Below, one piece after another: positions 15,914-54,335 of a DNA stretch of 64,000 nucleotides (within the stretch, counting starts at the first letter, position 1; each line of letters starts with the position of its first letter). The translations under genes were made by a program, and so were the position numbers. The DNA is from an uncultured Gemmatimonadales bacterium. GTDB lineage: Bacteria; Gemmatimonadota; Gemmatimonadetes; Longimicrobiales; RSA9. The stretch lies in assembly GCA_963798845.1 (NCBI GenBank), contig CAWCUS010000002.1:512001-576000 (forward strand), written 5' to 3'. The notes below the pieces were generated by a model. It was not told where the DNA came from, did not search any database, and saw nothing but the letters and a program-made list of their open reading frames with translations.

Positions 15914-16840
15914 TCAGCTGAGGGTCAGCTTCTGGTCCGTGGCCGCGCCGGCGGCCACGGTGGCCGAAACCTGCGCCCTCCTTTCCGCGGCGCCGATCCT
16001 CCCGATCACCTCCAGCACGTGGAGGCCCGGCGGCAGGTCCCGGAGGGTGGCCATCTGACCGGCCTGGTGGACGACCACTCCGTCGTCCACCGTGACGTCC
16101 CAGCCGGCGTCGCACTGATCGCCGTTGGTCACGGTCAGGTTCACGGCCCCCGGCTGCGCGGCGGCCCGCCGGGCGTCGGCTTCCGACGCGCGGGCGCGCA
16201 GGGCGTCGTTGATCTGCGTGATGCTGCGGCGGAACTCCTCCACCCACGCGGACGTCTCGTCCTCGACAATGGCGTTGACCGCGGTGGCGAACGCCCTCGC
16301 CCGCGCGAGCATCGCCTGCACTTCGTCCGGCGTCGGCGCCCGCCCTCCTCTCAGGGCTCGCTCCCCCTCCCATTCCAGCTCGAAGTTCTCGAGCGTGGTC
16401 CGGATCCTGTGCTCGCTCTGGATGTAGCGGATCCAGCCGCTCGAGGCGCCGTAGAACCGGTCGAAGCCCAGCGCGCCGGCCCCCACGGCCACCAGGATCG
16501 ACACCCAGATCGCCGGCACGTGGGGCGCGCCGCCCCCCATCTGGGCGACGACGACCTCGACCAGGGGCAGGATTCCCGCCGCGCCCAGCAGGAAGACGGC
16601 GAGGAACCGGGTGGCGACCGCGAGCCGCCGCTTCGGCACCCGCGCCCGCCTGTACCACCGGATCGCCTCCAGCGCGTCGCTCTGCACGTGCCCGTAGACC
16701 GCGGCGAGCGAAGCCTCGCAGTCCTCGGGCGCCCAGGAGAGCCCTTCGAGACCCGGTGCCCGGATGTCGCCCCGCTGCCGGCGCCGCGGCGGAGTCGTGG
16801 TCTTCGCGCTCGCCGCGGCGGAGATGTCGTCGTTGCTCAT
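15914..16840 (-). CDS. SLATT-domain (SLATT_2-like) two-TM protein with C-terminal beta-sandwich extension
   Basis: 'AIRWYRRARVPKRR', two TM helices, 'DRFYGASSGWIRY' pattern typical of SLATT_2. Confidence 0.7.
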   Translation of the reverse strand: MSNDDISAAASAKTTTPPRRRQRGDIRAPGLEGLSWAPEDCEASLAAVYGHVQSDALEAIRWYRRARVPKRRLAVATRFLAVFLLGAAGILPLVEVVVAQMGGGAPHVPAIWVSILVAVGAGALGFDRFYGASSGWIRYIQSEHRIRTTLENFELEWEGERALRGGRAPTPDEVQAMLARARAFATAVNAIVEDETSAWVEEFRRSITQINDALRARASEADARRAAAQPGAVNLTVTNGDQCDAGWDVTVDDGVVVHQAGQMATLRDLPPGLHVLEVIGRIGAAERRAQVSATVAAGAATDQKLTLS

Positions 16841-17108
16841 GAGAACGGCCTCACGGGACGTGAGGGTGGAAGCACGAGTCCCGAAGCCGGCGGCCCCGGC
16901 AAGGCCAGGGCGGCGGATTCGGGAGCGGAGGTGTGAAGCTCGCAGCGGCGCCAGCCGACGCGGCGCAGGAAAGTATTGCATCCCGGCCCGGCGGAGGTCC
17001 AGAGTCTCGGTCCCGGGTCTGCTTCCGCCCCGCCGACCCGGCTCCACGGCAGGGCGGAGGCGGGGCCCGCTCTGCCGGGGCGCCGGTCCGGGATGGCCCC
17101 GGTCCTGC

Positions 17109-18627
17109 ATGCGCGCCGCCCGAGACGGCGCCGCTCCTGCATCCGCGCCGCCCCGCGCTGGCGCAGCCCTCCTTCCGAGAGGCCTCCCTGAAGCGATTCC
17201 CGAACCCCCTCGTCCTCCTTTTCATCGGCGTGGTCCTGGCCGCGGCCATGACCTGGGTGCTGCCGGCCGGCCGCTACGACCGCCAGGCGGATCCCGCCAC
17301 CGGACGCCAGGTCGTCGTGAGCGGCAGCTACCACGCAGTCGCGCCCGATCCGGTGGGGCCGTTCGAGACCATCGTCGCCCTCCCGCGCGGGATGGAGGCG
17401 GCCGGCGACGTCATCTTCCTCGTGTTCCTGGTGGGCGGCGCGTTCACCGTGATCGACCGGACGGGCGCGTTCCATGGCGGGTTCGACCGGCTGGTGCGTG
17501 TGCTGGGCCGGCACGAGCTGCTGGTCATCCCCATCGCGTGCTACGTTTTCGGCGCGGCGGGCGCGCTCGAGAACATGCAGGAGGAGTTCATCGCGCTGGT
17601 GCCGGTGCTGCTGCTCCTCACCTCCCGGCTCGGCTTCGACACCGTCGTGGCCGTGGCCATCTCCCTGGGCGCCGCGTCCGTCGGCGCCGCCTTCAGCCCC
17701 ATCAACCCGTTCCAGGTCGGGATCGCACAGAAGATCGCGGGCGTCCCGCTGCTCGACCACGCCGCTTTCCGCTCCGCGTTCCTCCTGGTCGCGCTCGCGC
17801 TGTGGAGCTGGGGCACTGCCCGCTACGCACGTCGGACCAGAACCGCCCCGGGCGTCCCGCCCTCCGGGCCCCTCGAGGAAGACGAAGCAGCTTCGCGCGC
17901 TCCGGGCCGGCAGCTCCGCGAGGAGCCCGGTCACGTTCCCGGCGCGGCGGCGTCCACGCCCGGCGTCGCCCCGCACGAGGTCCGGATGACGGGGGCGCAC
18001 GCGCTGATCCTGGCGCTGGCCGTGCTCGCGTTCGGCATCTACGTCGTCGGCGTGATGCGGCTCGACTGGGGCTTCAACGAGATGTCCGCGCTCTTCCTCC
18101 TGCTCGGCGTGGTCGCCGGGCTCGTGGGCCGGCTCGGCGTCAGCGGCACCGCCGAAGCGTTCATCGAAGGCTTCCGGGCCATGGCCTTCGCCGCCATCCT
18201 CATCGGCTTCGCCCGCGCCATCTTCGTCGTGCTCGACGACGGCCGCGTGATCGACACCATCGTCCACGGCCTCTTCCAGCCCATCCAGGGACTCCCGCCC
18301 GCCCTCGCCGCCATCGGCATGGTCGCCGTCCACACCGCCGTCCACGTCCCCGTCCCCAGCGTGAGCGGCCAGGCCGTCCTCACCATGCCCATCCTCGCCC
18401 CCCTCGCCGACCTGCTCGGCCTCTCCCGCGACGTCGCCATCCTCGCCTTCCAGTACGGCGCCGGCATGTGCGAGATCCTCACCCCCACCAACGGCGCCCT
18501 CATGGCCGTCCTCGCGGCGGCGGGCGTGCGCTACGAGCGCTGGCTCGCCTTCGCGCTCCGGATGTGGGCCATGCTCGTGGCGCTCGGGATCGCGTCCATC
18601 CTGGTCGGGATCTGGATCGGGATGTAG
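17109..18627 (+). CDS. YfcC/DcuC-like transporter (start codon uncertain)
   Basis: 'FPNPLVLLF...TWVLPAGRYDR', 'INPFQVGIAQ', 'VPSVSGQAVLTMP', 'LAFQYGAG...PTNGALMA'. Confidence 0.85.
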
Positions 18628-18703
18628 GGGCGGCAACCGGCGACTTCGTATGTCGGCCCATCCCGGCATGGCCATGCCCGGGCCTCCGACTCAGAGTTGC
18701 CCC

Positions 18704-19783
18704 ATGACGGACGCCGTGCGGGTCACGGACGCGGCAACGCGGATCGAAGTCCGGTTCCCCTACGACGCGGAGCTGGTCGGCCACATCCGCTCGATACCGG
18801 GCCGGCGCTGGGACCCGGGCCGATCGGCGTGGCTGCTCCCGCGCACCGAGGACGCCCTCAACGCGCTGCTCCGGGCGCCCGACGCGAGCTTCCGCGTCGA
18901 CCGCGGTCTCATGCACCTGGTCCGCGTCCCGTTCCGCCGGGGCAGCGGAACCGATCCGGCGGCGGCGCTCCTCCAGCGCCTCTCGGAAGAGCTCCGGCTC
19001 CAGGGATACAGTCCGCGCACGCGGAAGAACTACGTCGGCCACGTCCGTCGGTTCTTCGGAGCTTTCCCGAAGGCCGCGACCGAGCTGTCGACGGAGCACG
19101 TCCGCGCTCACCTGCTCCGCCTCCAGGCCGACGACCGCTCCGTCTCCTACCAGCACCAGGCGATCAGCGCCATCCAGTTCGCGGCCCGGCTCGTCGATCG
19201 GCCGCTCGCGCTGGAGCCGATCCGCCGCCCGAAGCGGGAGCGCCAGCTCCCCGCCGTTCTCTCACGCGAGGAAGTGCGCCGCATCCTCAATGCCCCCGCC
19301 AACCCGACCCACCGGCTGGCCCTGATGCTCGCGTACTCCGCCGGACTCCGCGTCGGCGAGGTCGTACGCCTCAGCGCCGGCGACGTGGATTCCGGGCGAG
19401 GGCTGATCCGGGTCCGCGCCGGGAAGGGAAGGAAGGACCGCTATACGCTGCTGGCCGATGCCGCGGCCGCCGCCCTCGACCCCGTCCTCGCCCGCCTCGA
19501 CGCCGACGCCTGGATCTTCCCCGGTGCCCGCCCCGGCCGCCACCTGACGACACGCTCCGTGCAGAAGACCTTCGAGCGCGCCCTGGTCCGGTCCGGCGTA
19601 CGCAAGCACGCCACCGTGCACACGCTCCGCCACAGCTTCGCCACCCACCTCCTCGAGGCCGGCGTCAACCTCCGCTACATCCAGGAGCTCCTCGGCCACA
19701 CGAGCCCCCGCACCACCCAGATATACACCCACGTCAGCCGCGGCGATCTTACCCGGATCGTGAACCCGCTCGACGCAGCGTGA
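18704..19783 (+). CDS. Tyrosine recombinase, integron-integrase-like (N-terminal HARP-like domain, SAM-like domain, catalytic domain) lacking the IntI-specific insertion
   Basis: 'YSPRTRKNY', 'YSAGLRVGE', 'GKGRKDR', 'HTLRHSFATHLLEAG', 'IQELLGH', 'TTQIYTHV'; sits directly upstream of the cassette array. Confidence 0.92.
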   Translation: MTDAVRVTDAATRIEVRFPYDAELVGHIRSIPGRRWDPGRSAWLLPRTEDALNALLRAPDASFRVDRGLMHLVRVPFRRGSGTDPAAALLQRLSEELRLQGYSPRTRKNYVGHVRRFFGAFPKAATELSTEHVRAHLLRLQADDRSVSYQHQAISAIQFAARLVDRPLALEPIRRPKRERQLPAVLSREEVRRILNAPANPTHRLALMLAYSAGLRVGEVVRLSAGDVDSGRGLIRVRAGKGRKDRYTLLADAAAAALDPVLARLDADAWIFPGARPGRHLTTRSVQKTFERALVRSGVRKHATVHTLRHSFATHLLEAGVNLRYIQELLGHTSPRTTQIYTHVSRGDLTRIVNPLDAA

Positions 19784-19982: not shown

Positions 19983-20016
19983 ACCGAACACGAGTTCGGT
20001 AACGCAGTAGTTAAGT
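19983..20016 (+). other. Candidate attI-like primary recombination site (TAAC-N6-GTTA) with adjacent palindrome
   Basis: GTTAAGTGC at 20010 is the reverse complement of the first cassette's R'' (GCACTTAAC, 20186-20194); no attC arm upstream; palindrome accgaac-acga-gttcggt at 19983-20000. Confidence 0.75.
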
Positions 20017-20194
20017 GCCATGCGCGCAACGGATCATTCGGGCGGGTACTGTGCTCGCCAGCGGCTGGTTCAGGAAAGCTCCAGGCCTCGAGCTGAGCTA
20101 AGATTGCCCCGCCCCGCCCGGGGAGGGCTAGGGGGGAGAGGCCCAGCAGCTAGAACGAAAGGGAAGACAGGGCAAGGCGCGCACAGCACTTAAC
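20010..20194 (+). other. Cassette 1: gene-less/micro-ORF cassette type A (57-codon ORF 20020-20193, no RBS)
   Basis: Bounded by complementary GTTAAGTGC/GCACTTAAC; ends similar to type B cassette. Confidence 0.7.
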
Positions 20195-20337
20195 ACACGG
20201 TTGCCGCCTCCGCTCGCTTCGCGAGCTCCGGAGTACCCGGCGGATTAGCGAACGGAGTTCGGGAAGTATCCGGACGGGGGAGGGGAAACGAGCAATCGAG
20301 GGGGCGGACGCCGGGTCGCCCACCTGAAACGTTAGCC
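20188..20337 (+). repeat. attC-like site 1
   Basis: ACTTAAC...acccggcg...cgccgggt...GTTAGCC. Confidence 0.85.
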
Positions 20338-20509
20338 GCCATGCGCGCGGAGGAGGCTCTTGGGTGTTGCGCCCGAAATCGGCCGAGCAGGAAAGGGAAG
20401 AGCTTCGTTCTGAGGATTGGCTGCCCCACCCCACCCAAGAGGCCCAGATTCGTGAAGGGCTTGGAGCTTTGGTTTGCGAGGGCAGGGCAGGGCGCACACA
20501 GCGGCTAAC
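20331..20509 (+). other. Cassette 2: gene-less/micro-ORF cassette type B, copy 1
   Basis: GTTAGCCGC...GCGGCTAAC; near-identical copies at 21400 and 28536. Confidence 0.85.
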
Positions 20510-20654
20510 AACACGGTTGCCGCCTGCGCTCGCTGCGCTCGCTCCGGAGAACCCGGCGGATTAGCGAACTCGTGTTCGGAAAAGCGGCGGTGGATTGAAG
20601 CTACTGTGCACTCGGATCGCTGGACCGCCGGGTCGGCAACCGGAAACGTTATGC
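20503..20654 (+). repeat. attC-like site 2
   Basis: GGCTAAC...cggttgccg...cggcaaccg...GTTATGC. Confidence 0.9.
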
Positions 20655-20670: not shown

Positions 20671-20940
20671 CTACAGGCGCTTCAAGAGTTGGTCATAGTC
20701 GGCGTGTGAGCCGATCCAGAACCAGATCCAGTCATCGTCGGCGCGGCGGGCCAAGGCTCTGTAGTGGAGCGATATGCGGGCTGAGAAGATCGGCTCGGTC
20801 GCGTGAACCTGCTTGAACTGCAGGCTCGGATGAGCCGGATTGGCGGAGAAGAGGTCGAAGGCCTCGCGAGCCCGCTCCTGGACGTCGGTAGGAAGTGAGG
20901 AATAGGCCTTCCGAAAAGATGAAGTGGTGCGGGAGGTCAA
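20671..20940 (-). CDS. RelE/ParE-superfamily toxin (cassette 3, inverted relative to array)
   Basis: 'NPAHPSLQFK...SARISLHYRAL...WFWIGSHADYD'. Confidence 0.85.
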   Translation of the reverse strand: MTSRTTSSFRKAYSSLPTDVQERAREAFDLFSANPAHPSLQFKQVHATEPIFSARISLHYRALARRADDDWIWFWIGSHADYDQLLKRL

Positions 20941-21155
20941 AGCTTGGACGGGTCGAGGTTTTCCGTCTCACCTCGTGCGTCTTCGGCGAGGGCTTCGTTC
21001 GCGAGCTTCGCCAAGTCGTCCTGGGAGTTTTCAAAGGTCCGATCCCAGTTTCGATCGGACTCGAGCTCCTCCAGGAGTAGAGCGGCGATGGCGTCCTGCT
21101 GCTCGCTGGGGAGCTTGGACGCTTCGTCGAAAGCCTTCTTGAGTAGTTCGGTCAT
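20937..21155 (-). CDS. Cognate antitoxin (cassette 3)
   Basis: 72-aa acidic ORF 'MTELLKKAFDEASKLP...', RBS AAGGAGG, 4-nt overlap with the toxin. Confidence 0.85.
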   Translation of the reverse strand: MTELLKKAFDEASKLPSEQQDAIAALLLEELESDRNWDRTFENSQDDLAKLANEALAEDARGETENLDPSKL

Positions 21156-21173
21156 GAGATCCTCCTTGGCCGG

Positions 21174-21250: not shown

Positions 21251-21406
21251 GCATAACAAACGGTTGGCGCCTGCGGTCGCTTCGCTCCCTCCGGAGAACC
21301 CCGCGATCAAGATCGTGGCGCCGGTCGAAGGGGCGGGGCAGTTTCGAAGGATGCTGCGCCGGGAAAAGCAGTGGCAGGCGGGGTCGCCAACCTGGAAACG
21401 TTAGCC
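21251..21406 (+). repeat. attC-like site 3
   Basis: GCATAAC aaacggttggcg...cgccaacctggaaac GTTAGCC. Confidence 0.9.
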
Positions 21407-21578
21407 GCCATGCGCGCGGAGGAGGCTCTTGGGTGTTGCGCCCGAAATCGGCGGAGCAGGAAAGGGAAGAGCTTCGTTCTGAGGATTGGCTGCCCCACCC
21501 CACCCAAGAGGCCCAGATTTGTGAAGGGCTTGGAGCTTTGGTTTGCGAGGGCAGGGCAGGGCGCACACAGCGGCTAAC
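21400..21578 (+). other. Cassette 4: gene-less/micro-ORF cassette type B, copy 2
   Basis: Two substitutions relative to copy 1. Confidence 0.85.
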
Positions 21579-21679
21579 AACACGGTTGCCGCCTGCGCTC
21601 GCTGCGCTCGCTCCGGAGAACCCGGCGGATTAGCGAACTCGTGTTCGGAAAAGCGGCGGTGGATGAAGAAACGTTAAGC
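21572..21679 (+). repeat. attC-like site 4, internally deleted (right arm lost)
   Basis: Matches site 2 up to 'ggtggat', then jumps to 'gaaacGTTAAGC'. Confidence 0.8.
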
Positions 21680-22744: not shown

Positions 22745-22893
22745 GCTTAACAAACGGTTGGCGCCTGCGCGGCCTGCGGCCGCTCCGGAGAACCCGCCGC
22801 GGCCGTGTTGAAGCTGGTGAGAGGATCGCAGTTTCGAAGGTGATGCGCACTGGAGGTTGTGGCGCGGCGGGTCGCCAACCTGGAACGTTATCT
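22745..22893 (+). repeat. attC-like site 5
   Basis: GCTTAAC...GTTATCT with consensus arms. Confidence 0.9.
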
Positions 22894-23286: not shown

Positions 23287-24062
23287 CTAGGCGGCTTCAG
23301 AGTCCGGGGTCTCCTCCTGTTTGAGATGGCGGGTGCGGTAGGAGCGGCCGCGGAGCACGAAGTGAGTGCCGCGCTCCAGGAGCCGGTCGAGGATCGCCTC
23401 CGCAAGATCGGCATCATGCAGCACCTGACCGAGGGCGGCCAGAGGCTTATTGGTGGTGACGATCATGGGTCGGTGCCTGAGGTAGCGGTCGTTGACCACC
23501 CGGTAGAGCACGTTGGCGGCATCGGCGGCATAGCTCTGATAGCCGAGCTCGTCGATGATCAGGACGTGGGGGTGGACGTAGGGTTCGAGCGCCTCGTCCA
23601 GCCGTCCCTCAGTGGCCGCGTTGGAGAGGGCGCCGATCAGCTCATCCGCGGTGGTGAATCGGGCCTCGAATCCGTTCTGGATCGCTCGGTAGCCGATGGC
23701 TACCCCCATGTGGGTCTTCCCTCGACCCGGCGGGCCGCTGAAATGGCGCACCGGCCTTCGCTCACCAGCTCCGGCCCCAGCAGCGTGCCGAGCATCTGGA
23801 GGCGGACGCTGGTCTGGAAGGTGAAGTCGAATTCCTCAATGGTGCGGAGGAAGGGGAAGCGGGCCTTGCGGACGGACCGGGTGATCCGGGTCTGCGCCCG
23901 GTGAGCGATCTCCTCGGCCACCAGCAGCTCGAGGAAGGTGCGGTAGCTCATGCCCTCCTCCTCGGCCCGGATCGCCAGGTCCGGATACAGGCGCCGGATG
24001 GTCGGCATGTGGAGGCGCTTGAGCATGGCGTCGAGGTCGTCCAGCGGCACCGGAGTCTTCAT
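23287..24062 (-). pseudogene. istB: IstB ATPase with 1-bp deletion frameshift near 23742
   Basis: gctgaaatgg here versus gctgaagatgg in the intact copy; could be a sequencing error. Confidence 0.85.
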
Positions 24063-25468
24063 GAGGCCACCTCCTTCGCCGCCAGCCCGATCACGTACTC
24101 AGCTCCGATCAGCCGCTGGAAGAGCGCGCGCTGGAGCAGGCGGAGGAAGCGCTCCTGGCCGAGCTCCTCGAGCAGGGCGAAGAGGCGCTCCACGTCTCCT
24201 TTCCATGTGTGGGGTCGGGCGTGGATGAGCTCCGTCAGGTAGCCCTCTCCTACGGGCCCCAGCTCCAGGATTCGCTCCCGCATGAAGTAGAGGCGCTTCC
24301 GTGCACCGGCCACGGCCGCCAGCTGCTCGGCCCGCTGGCCGGGCAGGTAGCTGGTGTTTCCGATCTTTGGAAACCTGGGGTGGGTGGCCTCGAAGCGGGC
24401 GCCGGTGGTGACGATCCGGAGCCGGTCCGGGTACAGGTGGAGCGTGGCCGGGATCCCGCACGCACCCGCCGGCATGGCGTAGCGCACGCCCTGGAAGTCC
24501 ACGAGCGCGGTGGGTCCCACGTGGACAGCGTAACGCAGACCGTACTCGGCCGGCGGGATGGCCAGCGGCTTCATCCGCGCCTGCTCTGCGGTCAGCCGGA
24601 TCTTGGGGATCTCCTTCGTGGCCCGGGATGGCCGCTCCTCATTCCCCCCGATCAGCCAGTCCAGGAGCTGACGGGGGAGGTCCTGGTCGAGCTCAGCGAA
24701 GCGGCGGGCCCGGAAGAAGCTCCGCTTCACCCACCCCACCAGATTCTCCACCGATCCCTTCTGCTGCGGGCTCCTGGGCGTGCACAGCCCGATCGTGAAG
24801 CCATAGTCGATGGCGACCTGGGCCAGCGTGGAATTCCAGATCGGCCGGCCCCGGTCGTCGCGGCCCACCACCACCGTCTTCGGATTGTCGAAGACCACCC
24901 GGAGCGGCACCCCGCCCGAATGCTCGAAGCCGGCCAGGAGTGCCCGGACGAGTGACTCGATCCGCTCGTCCGGCACGATCACCACCCACACCCACCGCGA
25001 GTACTTCAGACGGTACGCCGCGAAGTGAACTCGCTTCTTCCGTCCATCCAGCAGCCGGACGTCGGCCTGACCGAAATCGAACTGGGCGAACTCCCCGGCC
25101 ACCCCCTCGAACCGCACCATCAGCTCCGCCGGCAGCTTCCCCTTCTCCAACCGGAAGACCCGGTAGAAGGTGCTCTCCGCCAGCTCCGCCCCCTCCTCCC
25201 GAAGCTGACGCAGGTATTCCAGGGGTGGAGCCTCGGGATCCTCCGCGATCAGATCCACCAGCCGGCGCTTCACCGCCTCCGGCACCGCGGGACGCCCGAT
25301 CCCCCGGCGCTTCCTCTCCGCCGCATCGTCTCCCTCCGCCACCGGCGGCTCCTTCGAGATCCGACGGACAGACCGCTCCGAGATCCCCAGCTGCCTCGCG
25401 ATTTCCGTCTGCTTCTGCCCCGCCTCCAGCAGCGCATGCACCGCATGTCGATCGATCACCCTGAGCAT
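24059..25468 (-). CDS. istA: IS21 transposase IstA
   Basis: N-terminal HTH, 'FAQFDFG', 'VFDNPKT', 'KGSVENLV'. Confidence 0.95.
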   Translation of the reverse strand: MLRVIDRHAVHALLEAGQKQTEIARQLGISERSVRRISKEPPVAEGDDAAERKRRGIGRPAVPEAVKRRLVDLIAEDPEAPPLEYLRQLREEGAELAESTFYRVFRLEKGKLPAELMVRFEGVAGEFAQFDFGQADVRLLDGRKKRVHFAAYRLKYSRWVWVVIVPDERIESLVRALLAGFEHSGGVPLRVVFDNPKTVVVGRDDRGRPIWNSTLAQVAIDYGFTIGLCTPRSPQQKGSVENLVGWVKRSFFRARRFAELDQDLPRQLLDWLIGGNEERPSRATKEIPKIRLTAEQARMKPLAIPPAEYGLRYAVHVGPTALVDFQGVRYAMPAGACGIPATLHLYPDRLRIVTTGARFEATHPRFPKIGNTSYLPGQRAEQLAAVAGARKRLYFMRERILELGPVGEGYLTELIHARPHTWKGDVERLFALLEELGQERFLRLLQRALFQRLIGAEYVIGLAAKEVAS

Positions 25469-26021: not shown

Positions 26022-26172
26022 AGATGACAAACGGTTGGCGCCTGCGCGGCCTGCGGCCGCTCCGGAGAACCCGCCGCGACCGTGCCGAAGCTGGTGAGGT
26101 GTTCGCAGTTTCGAAGGTGATCGCGCGCCTGAGGTTGTGGCGCGGCGGGTCGCCAACCTGGAAACGTTAGAC
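26022..26172 (+). repeat. attC-like site 6 (R'' variant AGATGAC)
   Basis: Consensus arms; ends GTTAGAC. Confidence 0.88.
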
Positions 26173-27318: not shown

Positions 27319-27469
27319 GTCTAACAAACGGTTGGCGCCTGCGCGGCCTGCGGCCGCTCCGGAGAACCCGCCGCGGCGGCTTGGAAGCTGGTGAGGTTCG
27401 TGTGATTTCGAAGGTGATCATGCGCTGGAGATAGTGGCGCGGCGGGTCGCCAACCTGGAAACGTTAGGC
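27319..27469 (+). repeat. attC-like site 7
   Basis: GTCTAAC...GTTAGGC. Confidence 0.9.
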
Positions 27470-28392: not shown

Positions 28393-28542
28393 GCTTAACA
28401 CACGGCCGCCGCCTTCGCTCGCTGCGCGAGCTCCGGAGAACCCGGCGTCAAGCGCACCGCCCTCGAGGAGAGCATTGAACCACTGGTAGACAGGCGGTAT
28501 GGAGGGATGTGCCGCCGGGTCGGCGGCCTAGAAACGTTAGCC
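28393..28542 (+). repeat. attC-like site 9
   Basis: GCTTAAC...ggccgccg...cggcggcc...GTTAGCC; arms covary relative to consensus. Confidence 0.88.
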
Positions 28543-28714
28543 GCCATGCGCGCGGAGGAGGCTCTTGGGTGTTGCGCCCGAAATCGGCCGAGCAGAAAAG
28601 GGAAGAGCTTCGTTCTGAGGATTGGCTGCCCCACCCCACCCAAGAGGCCCAGATTCGTGAAGGGCTTGGAGCTTTGGTTTGCGAGGGCAGGGCAGGGCGC
28701 ACACAGCGGCTAAC
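28536..28714 (+). other. Cassette 10: gene-less/micro-ORF cassette type B, copy 3
   Basis: One substitution relative to copy 1. Confidence 0.85.
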
Positions 28715-28859
28715 AACACGGTTGCCGCCTGCGCTCGCTGCGCTCGCTCCGGAGAACCCGGCGGATTAGCGAACTCGTGTTCGGAAAAGCGGCGGTGGAT
28801 TGAAGCTACTGTGCACTCGGATCGCTGGACCGCCGGGTCGGCAACCGGAAACGTTAACC
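28708..28859 (+). repeat. attC-like site 10 (same as site 2)
   Basis: GGCTAAC...GTTAACC. Confidence 0.9.
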
Positions 28860-29535: not shown

Positions 29536-30375
29536 TCAGGTTGTCGTAGCCTCCAGACGGGCACGTCGCCGTGGTTTGGGTGAAGGCTCTTCCTCCAGGT
29601 CGGGGGTGTGGAGCGCCTGCCAGACCTCGGAGTGCCGACGAAGGCGATAGCTGTTGCCCCGGATGTTGACAATGTGGCAATGGTGAAGCAGCCGGTCGAT
29701 CAGCGCCGCGGCCATGACTTCATCGCCGAAGATGGCGCCCCATTCTTCAAAGCTCTTGTTCGAGGTCAGGACCGTCGACGCCCGCTCATAGCGCCGGTTC
29801 ACGAGCTGGAAGAAGAGCATGGCTCCGGTGTGGCTGACCGGGAGGTAGCCGATCTCGTCCACCACCAGGAGCGAGGGGTGGCTCAGGACGCTCATCCGTT
29901 GCTTGAGCATGCCCGCCGCTTTGGCTTCCTCGAGAGACGAGATCAGATCTGCCAGGGTCCCGTAGTAGACGCGACGCCCGTGCTCGGCGGCGGCGATGGC
30001 GAGGCTGATGGCCAGGTGCGTTTTCCCGACTCCAGGAGGGCCGAGGAAGATCACGTTCTCCTTTCGCTCAATGAAGCCGAGTTCGTGGAGGCTCTCAATC
30101 TGCTCTCGCTTGATCGAGGGCTGGAATGAGAAATCGAAATCGGTGAGCAGCTTCACCGCCGGAAGCCGGCTCGAGCGCATGGCGGCCTGCAGACGTCGGT
30201 TGTTGCGGAGTTGGATCTGAGCTCCGAGGAGCTGCTCGATAGCCTCGCTTGGCGTGACCTCGCCACCATCGACGGCGGAAAGAATGGAGTCCAGGGCCTC
30301 CAGGGCCCCCGGCATCTTCAGGTCGGCCAGCATGGACCGGATGTGATCACGACGGGACACCTTGGCCCCTCTCAT
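29536..30375 (-). CDS. istB: IS21 helper ATPase IstB
   Basis: 'GPPGVGKTHLA', 'LLVVDEIGY', 'IDRLLHH'. Confidence 0.95.
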   Translation of the reverse strand: MRGAKVSRRDHIRSMLADLKMPGALEALDSILSAVDGGEVTPSEAIEQLLGAQIQLRNNRRLQAAMRSSRLPAVKLLTDFDFSFQPSIKREQIESLHELGFIERKENVIFLGPPGVGKTHLAISLAIAAAEHGRRVYYGTLADLISSLEEAKAAGMLKQRMSVLSHPSLLVVDEIGYLPVSHTGAMLFFQLVNRRYERASTVLTSNKSFEEWGAIFGDEVMAAALIDRLLHHCHIVNIRGNSYRLRRHSEVWQALHTPDLEEEPSPKPRRRARLEATTT

Positions 30376-31406
30376 TGGCCACCTGCCGCGATGCGGGCGT
30401 AGGTGGAGAGCGAGCGGCGCTGCACCGCAATCGCGGGGAGGAGCGACCGATCTCTCACCTCCTGCTTGCGCTCCATGGGGATGACCAGCGAGCGGTAGGA
30501 CCGCTCGGCCAGCGGAAGGAGGTGCTCCCGCTCCCTCTCGAAGCGCGCCACCGGCTGTTCCTTTGTGGTGCCGTGGATCCGGACGTTCGCCGTTTTCTCC
30601 AGCCACTGCTCGAGGCGAGCGTCCAGATCCTCGTCCCCGACAAACTCGCGGCCGTAGACGAAATTGCGGCGCACGTAGCTCACCGGCCGCTCGACCTTGC
30701 CTTTCGTCCGGGCTCGATAGGCTCTACAGGCGCGGATGTCGAAGCCCCAGTGAGCAGCGAAGCGCAGAAACTCCTCGTTCTTCAGGAGCTCACCTCCTTC
30801 CAGCCGCCGATCGTCCAGGATCACGTTCTTGAGCTGGTCGAAGAGGAGGTGCTGCGGTACTCCACCGAAGAAGCGGAAGGCCGCTTCCAGCCCCTCGTAC
30901 AGCGCCCCCGTGGTCTTCCGCGGGAAGTAGCGCACCCAGAGGAGTCTGGAGAAGCCGAGCACGACCAGAAGCGCATACCGCTTGCCCCACGGAAATCTGA
31001 AGTCCGCGAAGTCCACCTGAGCCTGCCGGCCCGGCGGAGTCTCGAAGCGGATCACCGGCTCCTCCGGCAATCGAGGGCGGACCTGCCTCACGTACACCTT
31101 CACCTGCGTGTAGCCCCCGTCGTAGCCGGCGGCCTTCACCTCCTCGAAGAGCCGCACGGCCGAGAGTTCCGGATACTCCTTCAGCCGCTGTCCGATGATC
31201 GCCTTGTACGGCTCGAGCTTCCACGGCACCGCAGGCCGCGGCCCGTACCGCACCGGGTCCTGATCCAGATCCCGGTCCAACTGGCCCCTCCGGATCCACC
31301 GATAGATCGTGGTCCGATCGACGCCGAGCATCTCGGCAATGGCCGCCTTCGGCAGCCCCTGCTCGAGGTAGTGTCGCAACAGCACACGCTGCTCCCTTCC
31401 ATGCAT
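30372..31406 (-). CDS. istA: IS21 transposase IstA
   Basis: 'RFETPPGRQAQVDF', 'KGKVERPVSYVR'. Confidence 0.95.
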   Translation of the reverse strand: MHGREQRVLLRHYLEQGLPKAAIAEMLGVDRTTIYRWIRRGQLDRDLDQDPVRYGPRPAVPWKLEPYKAIIGQRLKEYPELSAVRLFEEVKAAGYDGGYTQVKVYVRQVRPRLPEEPVIRFETPPGRQAQVDFADFRFPWGKRYALLVVLGFSRLLWVRYFPRKTTGALYEGLEAAFRFFGGVPQHLLFDQLKNVILDDRRLEGGELLKNEEFLRFAAHWGFDIRACRAYRARTKGKVERPVSYVRRNFVYGREFVGDEDLDARLEQWLEKTANVRIHGTTKEQPVARFEREREHLLPLAERSYRSLVIPMERKQEVRDRSLLPAIAVQRRSLSTYARIAAGGQ

Positions 31407-35510: not shown

Positions 35511-36920
35511 ATGCTCAGGGTGATCGATCGACATGCGGTGCATGCGCTGCTGGAGGCGGGGCAGAAGCAGACGGAAATCGCGAGGCAGCTGGGGATCTCG
35601 GAGCGGTCTGTCCGTCGGATCTCGAAGGAGCCGCCGGTGGCGGAGGGAGACGATGCGGCGGAGAGGAAGCGCCGGGGGATCGGGCGTCCCGCGGTGCCGG
35701 AGGCGGTGAAGCGCCGGCTGGTGGATCTGATCGCGGAGGATCCCGAGGCTCCACCCCTGGAATACCTGCGTCAGCTTCGGGAGGAGGGGGCGGAGCTGGC
35801 GGAGAGCACCTTCTACCGGGTCTTCCGGTTGGAGAAGGGGAAGCTGCCGGCGGAGCTGATGGTGCGGTTCGAGGGGGTGGCCGGGGAGTTCGCCCAGTTC
35901 GATTTCGGTCAGGCCGACGTCCGGCTGCTGGATGGACGGAAGAAGCGAGTTCACTTCGCGGCGTACCGTCTGAAGTACTCGCGGTGGGTGTGGGTGGTGA
36001 TCGTGCCGGACGAGCGGATCGAGTCACTCGTCCGGGCACTCCTGGCCGGCTTCGAGCATTCGGGCGGGGTGCCGCTCCGGGTGGTCTTCGACAATCCGAA
36101 GACGGTGGTGGTGGGCCGCGACGACCGGGGCCGGCCGATCTGGAATTCCACGCTGGCCCAGGTCGCCATCGACTATGGCTTCACGATCGAGCTGTGCACG
36201 CCCAGGAGCCCGCAGCAGAAGGGATCGGTGGAGAATCTGGTGGGGTGGGTGAAGCGGAGCTTCTTCCGGGCCCGCCGCTTCGCTGAGCTCGACCAGGACC
36301 TCCCCCGTCAGCTCCTGGACTGGCTGATCGGGGGGAATGAGGAGCGGCCATCCCGGGCCACGAAGGAGATCCCCAAGATCCGGCTGACCGCAGAGCAGGC
36401 GCGGATGAAGCCGCTGGCCATCCCGCCGGCCGAGTACGGTCTGCGTTACGCTGTCCACGTGGGACCCACCGCGCTCGTGGACTTCCAGGGCGTGCGCTAC
36501 GCCATGCCGGCGGGTGCGTGCGGGATCCCGGCCACGCTCCACCTGTACCCGGACCGGCTCCGGATCGTCACCACCGGCGCCCGCTTCGAGGCCACCCACC
36601 CCAGGTTTCCAAAGATCGGAAACACCAGCTACCTGCCCGGCCAGCGGGCCGAGCAGCTGGCGGCCGTGGCCGGTGCACGGAAGCGCCTCTACTTCATGCG
36701 GGAGCGAATCCTGGAGCTGGGGCCCGTAGGAGAGGGCTACCTGACGGAGCTCATCCACGCCCGACCCCACACATGGAAAGGAGACGTGGAGCGCCTCTTC
36801 GCCCTGCTCGAGGAGCTCGGCCAGGAGCGCTTCCTCCGCCTGCTCCAGCGCGCGCTCTTCCAGCGGCTGATCGGAGCTGAGTACGTGATCGGGCTGGCGG
36901 CGAAGGAGGTGGCCTCATGA
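35511..36920 (+). CDS. istA: IS21 transposase IstA
   Basis: Same protein as copy 1 except one residue (IEL versus IGL). Confidence 0.95.
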   Translation: MLRVIDRHAVHALLEAGQKQTEIARQLGISERSVRRISKEPPVAEGDDAAERKRRGIGRPAVPEAVKRRLVDLIAEDPEAPPLEYLRQLREEGAELAESTFYRVFRLEKGKLPAELMVRFEGVAGEFAQFDFGQADVRLLDGRKKRVHFAAYRLKYSRWVWVVIVPDERIESLVRALLAGFEHSGGVPLRVVFDNPKTVVVGRDDRGRPIWNSTLAQVAIDYGFTIELCTPRSPQQKGSVENLVGWVKRSFFRARRFAELDQDLPRQLLDWLIGGNEERPSRATKEIPKIRLTAEQARMKPLAIPPAEYGLRYAVHVGPTALVDFQGVRYAMPAGACGIPATLHLYPDRLRIVTTGARFEATHPRFPKIGNTSYLPGQRAEQLAAVAGARKRLYFMRERILELGPVGEGYLTELIHARPHTWKGDVERLFALLEELGQERFLRLLQRALFQRLIGAEYVIGLAAKEVAS

Positions 36921-37849: not shown

Positions 37850-38955
37850 CTTGAAGTCAACTTTGAAGTGCAACGTTCATAGTGTTGATCCGGGCTGATT
37901 CTCATATATCTCCGCGGGGGTGAGGAAGCCGAGCCGCTTGCGGGGTCGGTGGTTGAGGGCGGCAGCGATCCGGTCACAGTGGATCTGGGTGACTCGAGCC
38001 ATGCTCTGACGCTTCGGGAGATACTGCCGGATGAGGCCGTTCGTGTTCTCGCAGGTGCCTCGCTCCCAGGAGTGGTGGGGAGCGGCGAAGTAGACCGTGG
38101 CGCCGGTGGCCTTCTCCAGGGCTTTGTAGCCGTGGAACTCGGTCCCATTGTCGAGGGTGACGGTTCGGATGCGGCGGCCGGCGTTGCGGATCAGGGAAGT
38201 GGCGCACCGGTTCGTGGCGTCGGCGGTCCGGCCGCGCAGCTTGCCGAGGAGCAGGTAGCCGGTCTTCCGGTCCACCAGGGTGAGGACGCAGTGGCGGTCG
38301 GAGGATCCGATGACCGTGTCTCCTTCAAGGTGGCCCACGCGCGAGCGGTTCTCTGCGCCGGGCGGTCGCTCGGAAATGGGACGCTTGCCGGCAAGACGGC
38401 CGCGGCTGTCGTAGCTGCGGTAGCGCTTCCACTTCTTCTTCCTCGCGCCGCGCAGGTACTGATAGAGGAGGCCGCCCCTGCGGCGGTCCTCCCAGACGTA
38501 GCGATAAATGGTCTCGTGGCTGATGCGGAGCACGCCCGCCCGGGCGAGTCGGCCAGTGATCTGCTCGGGGCTCCACAGCTGCTGGAGCAGCGAACAGACC
38601 AGGGCCCAGTCATCGCCGCGGAAGCGTCGGTTCCGTCGGGATCGCGTGCGGCGGCCGCGGGTCATCTCGTCGGCCACCGCCGGCCGGTAGGCGCGGTCCT
38701 GTCTCGAGTTGCGCGTGATCTCCCGGCTGATCGTGCTCGGACTTCGGTCCAGCGCGCGGGCAATGCCGGCCTGACTGAAGCCTTGTTTTCTGAGCGCCGA
38801 GAGTGCATGTCGTTCACCTGAGGTGAGCTGGTGATATCCCATGAGCCCCTCCTATTTCTTGGTCGAAACAGGAAGCTCTGGGGTGTCCCAGCTCATCTCA
38901 ACCCCGGCACTCCTTCGAGCGGAGTCGAGCGTTGCACTTAGTTTGTGAATCCAAG
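37850..38955 (-). mobile_element. IS30-family insertion sequence
   Basis: Imperfect 26-bp IRs cttgaagtca...aagtgcaacg / cgttgcactt...gaatccaag; GCG on both flanks. Confidence 0.88.
37877..38842 (-). CDS. IS30 family transposase
   Basis: 'WSPEQI', 'SHETIY', 'GHLEGDTV', 'TLDNGTEF', 'WERGTCENTNGLIRQYLPK'. Confidence 0.95.
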   Translation of the reverse strand: MGYHQLTSGERHALSALRKQGFSQAGIARALDRSPSTISREITRNSRQDRAYRPAVADEMTRGRRTRSRRNRRFRGDDWALVCSLLQQLWSPEQITGRLARAGVLRISHETIYRYVWEDRRRGGLLYQYLRGARKKKWKRYRSYDSRGRLAGKRPISERPPGAENRSRVGHLEGDTVIGSSDRHCVLTLVDRKTGYLLLGKLRGRTADATNRCATSLIRNAGRRIRTVTLDNGTEFHGYKALEKATGATVYFAAPHHSWERGTCENTNGLIRQYLPKRQSMARVTQIHCDRIAAALNHRPRKRLGFLTPAEIYENQPGSTL

Positions 38956-39759: not shown

Positions 39760-39935
39760 CGATAACACAGTTTCGATCGGACTCGAGCTCCTTGAGGAGC
39801 AGAGAAGCAATGGCGTCCGGGATCGGCAGTTCAAGGCCGGCGTTCCTGGGCCTCTGGTGAGGAGATTGCAGTTTCGAAGGTGGCCGCGCGCTGGAGCTTT
39901 CGGCGCGGCGGGTCGCCAACCTGGAAACGTTAAGT
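39760..39935 (+). repeat. attC-like site 17, chimeric (left arm replaced by antitoxin-derived sequence)
   Basis: R'' CGATAAC matches the cassette start; right arm is consensus; 39768-39832 resembles 21046-21095. Confidence 0.75.
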
Positions 39936-40482: not shown

Positions 40483-40633
40483 AATAGACAAACGGTTGGC
40501 GCCTGCGCGGCCTGCGGCCACTCCGGAGAACCCGCCCCGATTAGCTGGACTCTGGTGAGATTCGTGCAGTTTCGAAGGTGATCGCGCGCTGAAGGTTTCG
40601 GCGTGGCGGGTCGCCAGCCTGTGAACGCTGAGC
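40483..40633 (+). repeat. attC-like site 18, degenerate at both R boxes
   Basis: AATAGAC aaacggttggcg...cgccagcctgtgaac GCTGAGC. Confidence 0.75.
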
Positions 40634-41460: not shown

Positions 41461-41482
41461 CGCCGACCTGGAAACGTCAAGC
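41461..41482 (+). repeat. attC-like site 19 remnant (right end only, GTC core)
   Basis: cgccgacctggaaacGTCAAGC. Confidence 0.65.
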
Positions 41483-54050: not shown

Positions 54051-54109
54051 GCCCCGCGGATGCCGGCCGCCCCGGCACCCGCGCCGCGCCTTCGCGTTCC
54101 CTGGGCGCC

Positions 54110-54335
54110 GGGTGCCTCCCCGCGCGCAATGACGCTGCTTCGGCGAGGGGTGCCTCCTCGCGCGCAATGACGCTGCTTCGGCGACGGGTGCCTCCTCGCG
54201 CGCATGACGCTGCTTCGGCGAGCGGGTGCCTCCTTGCGCGCAATGACGCTGCTTCGCGGGCGCTGCCTCCTTCAGGGCCCTGACGCTGCTTCGGCCGCGG
54301 GTGCCTCCTTGCGCGCCATAACGCTGCTTCGCGGG
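54110..54335. repeat. Six tandem ~38-bp repeats (gggtgcctcctcgcgcgcaatgacgctgcttcggcga)
   Basis: Units start near 54110, 54148, 54186, 54223, 54261 and 54299; no spacers. Confidence 0.85.

Follow-up and report, generated by a model that had tools for sequence, protein, structure and literature searches.

A cassette array whose attC-type sites are predicted to fold without extrahelical bases, next to a tyrosine recombinase lacking the I2 domain

We analysed 64,000 nucleotides (nt) of DNA from an uncultured Gemmatimonadales bacterium (contig CAWCUS010000002.1, positions 512,001 to 576,000; this whole stretch is called the window below) and show that the repeats between 20.0 and 41.5 kilobases (kb) are cassette-associated, attC-type recombination sites belonging to a sedentary, integron-like array on the chromosome. 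Directly upstream of this array, on the same strand, lies the gene for a tyrosine recombinase, P0001. The system works like an integron and departs from the definition of one in two respects: the sites are without extrahelical bases, and the enzyme is without I2, the additional domain of the integron integrases (IntI). We consider it probable, with real room for doubt, that the sites fold into a bulge-free three-way junction and are served by this recombinase, a member of an I2-less clade that is sister to IntI. The system seems to represent a second, hitherto undescribed type of integron architecture.

Fuzzy searches for both site ends, followed by inspection, yielded 15 complete and three partial attC-type sites of approximately 150 nt on the + strand between 20188 and 41480, the complete ones being 149–156 nt long. 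Repeat families tile the + strand from 20.2 to 41.5 kb. We counted 13 occurrences of the left-end motif AAC-N5-GKYKSCG in the window, where 3.93 would be expected; none of 100 shuffles had as many. We built a covariance model (R1) from 14 of the 15 complete sites; it matches 17 sites in the window and, elsewhere in the 4.26-Mb genome, only two sites, a pair on contig C5. An Rfam scan of positions 18000–42500 returned no matches at E values up to 1. The partial sites are one with an internal deletion (21573–21679), a right half (39802–39935) and an R' remnant (41461–41480). The recombinase gene, the candidate attI and the sites are the following:

18650..19783, + strand: gene for tyrosine recombinase P0001, 377 residues; Pfam Phage_integrase (2.2e-42) and Phage_int_SAM_4
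19985..20013, + strand: candidate attI, with palindrome CGAACACGAGTTCG at 19985–19998 and crossover GTTA at 20010–20013
20188..20337, + strand: attC-type site 1, R1 107.3 bits; side hairpin GCTCGC-TTC-GCGAGC, mismatches in L'
20503..20654, + strand: attC-type site 2, R1 107.7 bits; closes a cassette of about 316 base pairs (bp) present three times in the array
21251..21406, + strand: attC-type site 3, R1 122.8 bits
21573..21679, + strand: internally deleted attC-type site, R1 46.2 bits; left half abuts the R' end
22745..22893, + strand: attC-type site 4, the site of the original prediction, R1 151.3 bits; both strands folded
26022..26172, + strand: attC-type site 5, R1 157.9 bits
27319..27469, + strand: attC-type site 6, R1 162.3 bits
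27973..28128, + strand: attC-type site 7, R1 128.3 bits; L stem GGCTGGCG/CGCCAGCC
28393..28542, + strand: attC-type site 8, R1 115.5 bits; L stem GGCCGCCG/CGGCGGCC
28708..28859, + strand: attC-type site 9, a copy of site 2, R1 112.2 bits
31561..31711, + strand: attC-type site 10, R1 162 bits
32465..32617, + strand: attC-type site 11, R1 134.7 bits
34298..34450, + strand: attC-type site 12, R1 119.9 bits
34839..34990, + strand: attC-type site 13, R1 156.2 bits
38958..39109, + strand: attC-type site 14, R1 130.4 bits
39802..39935, + strand: right half of an attC-type site, left half gone, R1 31.5 bits
40483..40633, + strand: attC-type site 15, with a degenerate R' (GAACGCTGAG), R1 134.9 bits
41461..41480, + strand: R'-end remnant (CGCCGACCTGGAAACGTCAA), the final trace of the array, repeat family D7

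The original prediction was made for site 4. Read from the sequence, the parts of this site are, from left to right on the + strand:

22745–22751: R'' box, GCTTAAC
22752–22755: left spacer, AAAC
22756–22763: L'' box, GGTTGGCG
22764–22791: 28-nt side branch on the R''/L'' arm, CCTGCGCGGCCTGCGGCCGCTCCGGAGA
22769–22783: side hairpin within the branch, GCGGCC-TGC-GGCCGC, with loop TGC at 22775–22777
22789–22791: linker AGA, the end of the side branch
22792–22801: main stem, ACCCGCCGCG, pairing with CGCGGCGGGT at 22863–22872
22873–22880: L' box, CGCCAACC
22881–22886: right spacer, TGGAAC
22887–22893: R' box, GTTATCT

The left end (AAC-N5-GTT) and the order of R box, L box, branch and main stem are as had been described for this site. 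The right-hand interval had been given as usually AAC-N8-GTT, which holds for most of the other sites but not for site 4 itself, where it is AAC-N7-GTT. One G-C pair lengthens the L stem, and the unpaired spacers are therefore 4 and 6–7 nt long.

A single strand of such a site can fold into a three-way junction composed of an R''/R' stem, a bubble, the L stem, the side hairpin, a 3-nt linker and the main stem. The bubble is asymmetric, with 4 nt on the R'' side and 6–7 nt on the R' side, where the sequence right before the G|TT crossover is usually TGGAAAC. The side hairpin leaves the R''/L'' arm directly after L'', and a main stem of variable length prolongs the L stem. By our reading of the minimum-energy folds of the top strand, calculated with DNA parameters, the 8-bp L stem forms in 12 of the 15 sites and a six-pair side hairpin in 7 of the 15; the bottom strand folds as the mirror image of the top. 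Single-base bulges in the L stem were found in none of the window-site folds, and aligning the sites and folding both strands brought to light no canonical extrahelical bases in this stem.

We scored covariation on a model structure with five parts: the R stem, the L stem, a CC/GG-closed side hairpin and the main stem in two parts. In the 14 window sites, 89.1% of the cells are paired and 14 of 34 pairs have changed on both sides, a result that none of 500 shuffles reaches; controls with slid partners give 30–43% paired. Using R1 we then aligned 107 sites, 105 of them distinct, from the window and from the arrays of nine related genomes. Pairing over these 105 sites is 88.8%, with compensatory changes at 30 of 34 pairs, and again none of 500 shuffles reaches the observed values. 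Compensatory changes affect 7 of the 8 pairs of the L stem, which is 96% paired overall, and all 10 pairs of the main stem. The claim that the L stem covaries and that structure is under selection is borne out by these data.

The dimensions of the sites are equally regular (counts over the 105 distinct sites). The L stem has all 8 pairs in 77 sites and at least 7 in 95, in agreement with the prediction of a stem without a single extra base. The left and right unpaired spacers measure 4/7 nt in 79 sites and 4/6 nt in 16; taken separately, the left one is 4 nt long in 98; for the right one, 83 sites have 7 nt and 18 have 6 nt, and its sequence is TGGAAAC in 52. The R boxes follow RYYYAAC (R'') and GTTRRRY (R'), for example GCTTAAC...GTTAGCC, GTTAGAC or GTTAAGC, and their AAC/GTT pairs are formed in 93–100 sites. 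The branch, foreseen as a hairpin-bearing bulge of about 28 nt on the left arm only, indeed sits on the R''/L'' arm and is 28 nt long in 69 sites. It is kept in sequence and position, with many invariant columns, and a subclass of sites has two mini-hairpins in it. The main stem is variable, with an overall site length of 93–163 nt, and the short variants of 93–121 nt retain the branch and are shorter only in the distal main stem. Branching alone is not unusual: chromosomal attC sites may have variable terminal structures that are branched (PMC5027507). What is odd is that the branch is conserved, fixed in place and takes the place of bulged bases.

The sites also occur in related bacteria, together with the enzyme. 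R1 sites are present in 20 of 101 related genomes (17 of 60 in family f1, 2 of 20 in f2 and 0 of 20 in f3), and a P0001 orthologue in 29, with both found together in 13. Expressed differently, 13 of the 20 genomes with sites have an orthologue, compared with 16 of the 81 without sites. The orthologue lies directly upstream of an array and on the same strand in nine genomes (G000, which is the genome of the window, its congener G001, and G005, G013, G032, G033, G036, G040 and G093). Genome G010 is negative for R1 under strict filters and has at least nine divergent sites of about 146 nt with the same plan behind its orthologue, with the hairpin motif GCGGCC-TGC-GGCCGC or GCTCGC-TTC-GCTCGC. Applied to 29 distant loci, R1 gave no useful match (one at E 0.13); the model is lineage-specific. 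The observation of the repeat structure is confirmed, and it extends to a bacterial family.

Two further searches for similar sites were discarded. The repeats at two loci (L028 and L029) are not attC-like; those of L029 are coding paralogues, on a contig that ends 230 nt past the integrase. A scan of 160 loci for the generic pattern AAC-N3-9-8mer...8mer-N3-10-GTT gave 19 loci with at least three matches, scattered and mostly AT-rich, and was not used; a shuffled segment of the window gave 0–4 matches in the same scan. As for the two R1 matches on contig C5, they lie at 360206–361120 on the − strand (locus L153), are of the branched type with 161 and 145 bits, and form a small integrase-less cluster, remote from any recombinase gene.

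P0001 consists of an N-terminal, tentatively HARP-like domain (residues ~20–100), a SAM-like core-binding domain and a catalytic domain. Its reading frame is intact, and residues R234, K259, H324, R327, H350 and Y359 are invariant in 12 of 12 family members. The best family model is that of the integron integrases, TIGR02249, with 204 bits against a cutoff of 265, which matches in two pieces (positions 1–179 and 235–314) and leaves 180–234 unmatched. With VchIntIA (structure 2a3v) the alignment covers 111–270 and 297–375 and has 26 residues where the 2a3v chain has 68, a gap that coincides with the region of the IntI-specific additional domain, the I2 helix around patch III. Alignment with the archaeal XerA structures 4a8e and 5hxy runs from end to end; the scores against the Xer models are all below the cutoffs (XerA 195 against 220, XerC 173 against 335, XerD 163 against 330). 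The distance between the motifs GK.K and H..RH is 63–66 residues in P0001 and its relatives (66 in P0001), 72–76 in Xer-like proteins and 106–108 in canonical IntI. An AlphaFold model of P0001 (predicted local distance difference test, pLDDT, 81.7) matches 2a3v best (E 1.7e-16), followed by XerA. We take these sequence comparisons to show that P0001 is without the I2 domain, and the neighbouring recombinase is atypical, as had been proposed.

In a tree of 39 rows (IQ-TREE), the clade of P0001 (support 98/95) and the IntI clade (100/100) join at 99/98. The P0001 clade is sister to the IntI clade, not inside it, and stands apart from XerC/D-like proteins. Columns filled in fewer than 30% of the rows were removed, so the insert itself was not used; the long-branched L083_+_9970 and 14 Xer-like rows were left out, and the tree is unrooted. 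It replaces a quick tree of 54 rows, in which the sister relation to IntI had a Shimodaira–Hasegawa-like approximate likelihood ratio (SH-aLRT) of 90 and one row was long. Since the outgroups are all without the insert, a single gain of I2 on the IntI stem would be the most economical reading of this unrooted tree. Homologues of P0001 are numerous: among 8000 candidates scored, 3581 have more than 90% coverage at E values up to 1e-40. They bear generic names such as 'tyrosine-type recombinase/integrase' or 'XerD' and, in a single case, 'site-specific tyrosine recombinase/integron integrase', and those named are from Longimicrobiales, Gemmatimonadota, Dehalococcoidia, Latescibacteria, Clostridiales and others.

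The array behaves as expected for cassettes. The window genome and its congener share one sequence as far as ...GCAGTAGTTA and part immediately beyond it; agreement up to the GTTA and difference past it fit an attI with different first cassettes. A single GTTA lies 105–445 nt past the integrase stop codon in 6 of 6 genomes compared. A unit of about 316 bp occurs three times in the array, each copy beginning at the R' of a different upstream site, and identity between the cassette of site 2 and the copy at 28597–28856 stops right after GTTA. The cassette genes are mostly on the + strand and include DUF3800, glyoxalase and HNH genes. Public reads were available as contigs from three metagenome runs of one study, with 12–15% of words present; parts not covered are uninformative. 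Three metagenome contigs match up to 27466–27467, just after the GTTA of site 6, and then differ, and one contig skips 21394–21668, with 9 ambiguous letters within GAAACGTTA. These are single contigs at 90% likeness, and their support is therefore weak only. A joint that leads back from 22883 to 21397 on one metagenome contig (side 37, both ends in R' boxes, 7 ambiguous letters) was not counted as evidence, because it could come from a cassette circle, a tandem duplication or the gene order of another strain.

The side hairpin carries a strand signature. In 88 of the 105 sites its loop is T-N-C, closed by C-G (TGC in 43, TTC in 34, TAC in 10, TCC in 1), which on the bottom strand reads as a C(GNA)G triloop. 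Such d(GNA) loops with a C-G closing pair are described as very stable (PMC3201870, PMC13037366). Mismatches in the side hairpin, read on the top strand, are pyrimidine–pyrimidine (Y.Y) in 84 cases and purine–purine (R.R) in 7; in the other three helices the two kinds are near 1:1 (57:62, 11:11 and 29:36). About 30% of the sites have T.C/C.T mismatches in the top-strand hairpin. The common variant GCTCGC/GCTCGC amounts to a tandem G.A in C-GA-G context on the bottom strand, a context in which tandem G.A pairs are stable, and the pairs that flank the constant mismatch covary. The T-N-C loops and Y.Y mismatches, which become C(GNA)G and tandem G.A on the bottom strand, suggest that the strand which folds for recombination is the bottom one, as it is in known integrons. 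The idea in the original prediction that strand choice may be encoded differently here was reasonable, and the interpretation as a whole is partly supported.

The N-terminal domain of P0001 (residues ~20–100) is confidently predicted (pLDDT 90.8) and has the conserved motif IPGRRW...W..P. Structural alignment with VIA-align gives Z 7.0 with the N-domain of T4 UvsW (root-mean-square deviation, rmsd, 1.8; 60 residues aligned) and Z 5.6–5.8 with the N-terminal domain of XPB. The HARP domain of SMARCAL1 (4o66) ranks first in Foldseek (E 0.047), with a VIA-align Z of 4.0. The Pfam HARP model matches P0001 at E 0.0045, with 17 bits against a cutoff of 25, and gives sub-threshold matches in 5 of 12 family members (E up to 1). 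These scores are all in a range where a shared arrangement of the fold is possible, and the assignment of a HARP/UvsW-N/XPB-like fold is therefore tentative. HARP, UvsW-N and XPB-DRD are related binders of forked or branched DNA. We hypothesize that the N-domain may act as a reader of the branch.

Three loci encode relatives with this N-domain. The metagenome contigs L165 (5428–6799) and L191 (1120–3287) carry N-domain integrases that are 35–38% identical to P0001 and three attC-like sites each, with long bulge-free stems that show G.T/A.C strand asymmetry. In Psychroserpens sp. AS72 (L032, 85–8185 and 9940–11007) the integrase is 32% identical, without the I2 insert and transcribed divergently from the array, which has at least five attC-like sites of ~135–200 nt; the flanking boxes pair across cassette boundaries, and one strand folds clearly better through G.T pairs. 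The sites of all three loci have in common a bulge-free L stem and spacers that are longer on the R' side: 3 and 7 nt at L165 and L191, where GAAAC or GGAAC precedes GTT, and 0 and 6 nt at L032.

In the mechanism that we propose, recombination of the array would be the work of P0001, not of a canonical IntI, with crossovers in the G|TT of R' and in the GTTA of attI. The bottom strand would be the folded substrate, with a C(GNA)G triloop and, in ~30% of the sites, a tandem G.A. The protruding hairpin and the asymmetry of the spacers may replace extrahelical bases in marking strand and arm and in stabilising the synapse. A region of the protein distinct from I2 would recognise them, possibly the N-terminal HARP/UvsW-N-like domain.

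An alternative is that these are ordinary attC sites of a sedentary chromosomal integron whose variable terminal structure is branched, that a canonical IntI recombines them in trans, and that P0001 is a bystander. The canonical R boxes and the cassette-like layout suit this view, as does the branching that variable terminal structures of chromosomal attC can show (PMC5027507). The same genome moreover holds a textbook integron outside the window (contig C2, 1322–8198, locus L154), whose IntI has the additional domain (TIGR02249 positions 169–315 matched) and is split by a frameshift near 1827–1831; the congener G001, the only genome in which the TIGR02249 searches found a canonical IntI above the cutoff, has two intact copies, adjoined by the same short attC type. 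A HigB/HigA-like pair is found upstream of the C2 integron. The C2 integron, however, has its own array of six attC sites on the same strand as its IntI. With lengths of 66–121 nt, these sites lack the side hairpin, and in 6 of 6 of them the R''/L'' arm contains two single-base bulges. Neither site type occurs in the array of the other: with filters off, R1 found none of the six C2 sites, and the start motif of the C2 sites is nowhere in the window. The presence of two site grammars and two enzymes in a single genome speaks for distinct specificities. Furthermore, TIGR02249 searches found no IntI above the cutoff in G032 (a single contig), G036, G040 and G033, all of which have arrays; in nine genomes the array and the P0001 orthologue are in synteny; and the branch is conserved in sequence and position, not variable. 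We consider action in trans by a canonical IntI unlikely.

Recombination could also involve double-stranded DNA. P0001 would then act like Xer or Cre on a simple site at the right-hand end, and the hairpin part would be, for example, a terminator or a cruciform. The L' and R' boxes do form an inverted repeat around an 8-bp centre (CGCCAAC-N8-GTTAGCG), and 8 bp is the typical overlap length of tyrosine recombinases. The absence of I2 from P0001 fits this option as well, this domain being held to be the innovation for single-strand recombination (PMC7790495). Yet the L stem (7 of 8 pairs), the main stem (10 of 10) and the side hairpin covary while their sequences change, which argues for selection for intrastrand pairing and not for a fixed double-stranded binding sequence, and the mismatch and loop patterns of the side hairpin are strand-specific. 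We give the double-stranded alternative a small chance, much like that of IntI acting in trans.

That the array is an inactive relic whose site features come from decay or drift could be argued from the several insertion sequences (IS) in the array, the three truncated sites and the degenerate R' at 40483–40633, but is very improbable in view of the compensatory changes across 105 sites in 10 genomes, the different first cassettes at the same attI point in two congeners, and the intact frame and six invariant catalytic residues of P0001.

Several points weigh against our preferred reading, in which the bulge-free three-way junctions are served by the I2-less recombinase. The 105-site alignment (A2) was fitted to the R1 model, which tilts its pair counts towards the structure, and many of the 105 sites share descent, so that loops and mismatches cannot be counted as independent events. 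Whole-site folding energies of top and bottom strand are similar, and top-strand G.T pairs (111) against A.C pairs (80) show no bias towards the bottom strand; as strand tests both were dropped as not decisive. Seven of the 20 site-bearing genomes show no orthologue (fragmented assemblies with one or two sites each), and the tallies take in unpublished genomes, G020 for the sites and G016 and G017 for the orthologue. For the N-domain, all fold matches are under Z 8 and the HARP Pfam match is sub-threshold; the sites of the relatives L165, L191 and L032 are without the GC-rich side hairpin, which makes the link between N-domain and hairpin weak. The genus does have a canonical IntI, with intact copies in G001, that might work in trans. 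Finally, recombination itself, the choice of strand and the protein–DNA contacts are what we infer.

Other features lie in and around the array. Two copies of an IS (24059–25468 on the − strand and 35511–36920 on the + strand) encode a 469-residue transposase with rve and Mu-transposase C-terminal domains, and the array also contains an IS21-type element with an IstB-like ATPase (1.4e-80) and an rve transposase (29536–31406, − strand) and an IS30-like transposase gene (HTH_38 and rve; 37877–38842, − strand). At 20671–21160 on the − strand, a ParE-like toxin gene and a small open reading frame upstream of it run opposite to the other cassettes; opposite-strand toxin–antitoxin cassettes are a common arrangement in chromosomal integrons. 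A fragment related to the ParE-like locus recurs at 39768–39818. Just upstream of the recombinase gene, 15914–17110 (− strand) encodes a 398-residue SLATT_2 protein (2.3e-20); SLATT_2 is a two-helix membrane effector domain tied to nucleotide-signalling defence systems. At 54085–54332 there are ~6 head-to-tail copies of a 38-nt unit (GGGTGCCTCCYCGCGCGCAATGACGCTGCTTCGGCGA) without spacers, which are hence not a CRISPR array.

We speculate that the array belongs to a second, widespread class of integrons, formed by IntI-sister integrases that never acquired I2, with polarity and strand encoded in the asymmetric bubble and, within this bacterial family, also in the bottom-strand mini-hairpin, and with a HARP/UvsW-like N-domain that may read the structure. 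We regard this wider proposal as a serious possibility that falls short of being probable. If true, folded single-strand cassette recombination predates I2 or is independent of it, and such elements escape tools that require the IntI signature domain. With an I2-less sister clade of IntI and covarying, bulge-free sites at hand, the origin of single-strand attC recognition becomes directly testable, and the sites offer a natural alternative grammar for structure-specific recombination sites. The findings suggest that cassette arrays are under-counted in Gemmatimonadota-like and other environmental bacteria.

With canonical attC sites, such as the Vibrio cholerae repeats and attCaadA7, the array sites share the R boxes, the G|TT crossover and an L stem that lies past an unpaired spacer, and canonical integrons also have the variable distal stem, the co-oriented cassettes and an adjoining attI and tyrosine recombinase. 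Canonical attC sites have extrahelical bases near L'' and a central spacer of 5–6 nt per arm, according to PMC5027507. The array sites, in contrast, are without single extrahelical bases in or beside L'', have spacers of 4 and 7 nt instead of the usual 5–6 per arm given there, and add a 28-nt, sequence-conserved side hairpin at a fixed position. The textbook integron on C2 has the same host, the same co-orientation of integrase and cassettes and the same R-box consensus, but its IntI has the additional domain and its attC sites are short, bulged and without the side hairpin.

On the side of the enzyme, VchIntIA is the best match of P0001 in both sequence and fold. P0001 differs from IntI in being without I2 and in having an extra N-terminal domain. 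IntI is defined by the additional domain, which is used to define integrons in genome surveys (PMC9668308). In IntI, for example VchIntIA, I2 takes the extrahelical bases as reference points when it recognises attC, and a Xer-like enzyme is held to have moved from double- to single-strand recombination, and so to have become IntI, by acquiring this domain (PMC7790495). Our full-text searches, in which few subscription journals were covered, found no published attC array served by an integrase without the additional domain.

With XerC/XerD and XerA, P0001 shares a catalytic domain of the length expected in the absence of I2. Xer enzymes are able to act on a folded single strand (PMC7790495); the dif-mimicking single-stranded hairpins of phages such as CTX are similar in this respect. 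P0001 nevertheless branches with IntI and is tied to cassette arrays, not to a single dif site, and the window genome has separate Xer-like genes. Recombinases of the lambda Int type have an extra N-terminal arm-binding domain before the core-binding and catalytic domains, and use an accessory DNA element. The extra N-terminal domain of P0001 and the conserved accessory element beside the core site are alike in this sense, but the N-domain of P0001 is tentatively HARP/UvsW-N/XPB-like, and the accessory element would be a hairpin in a folded single strand and not a distant double-stranded arm site.

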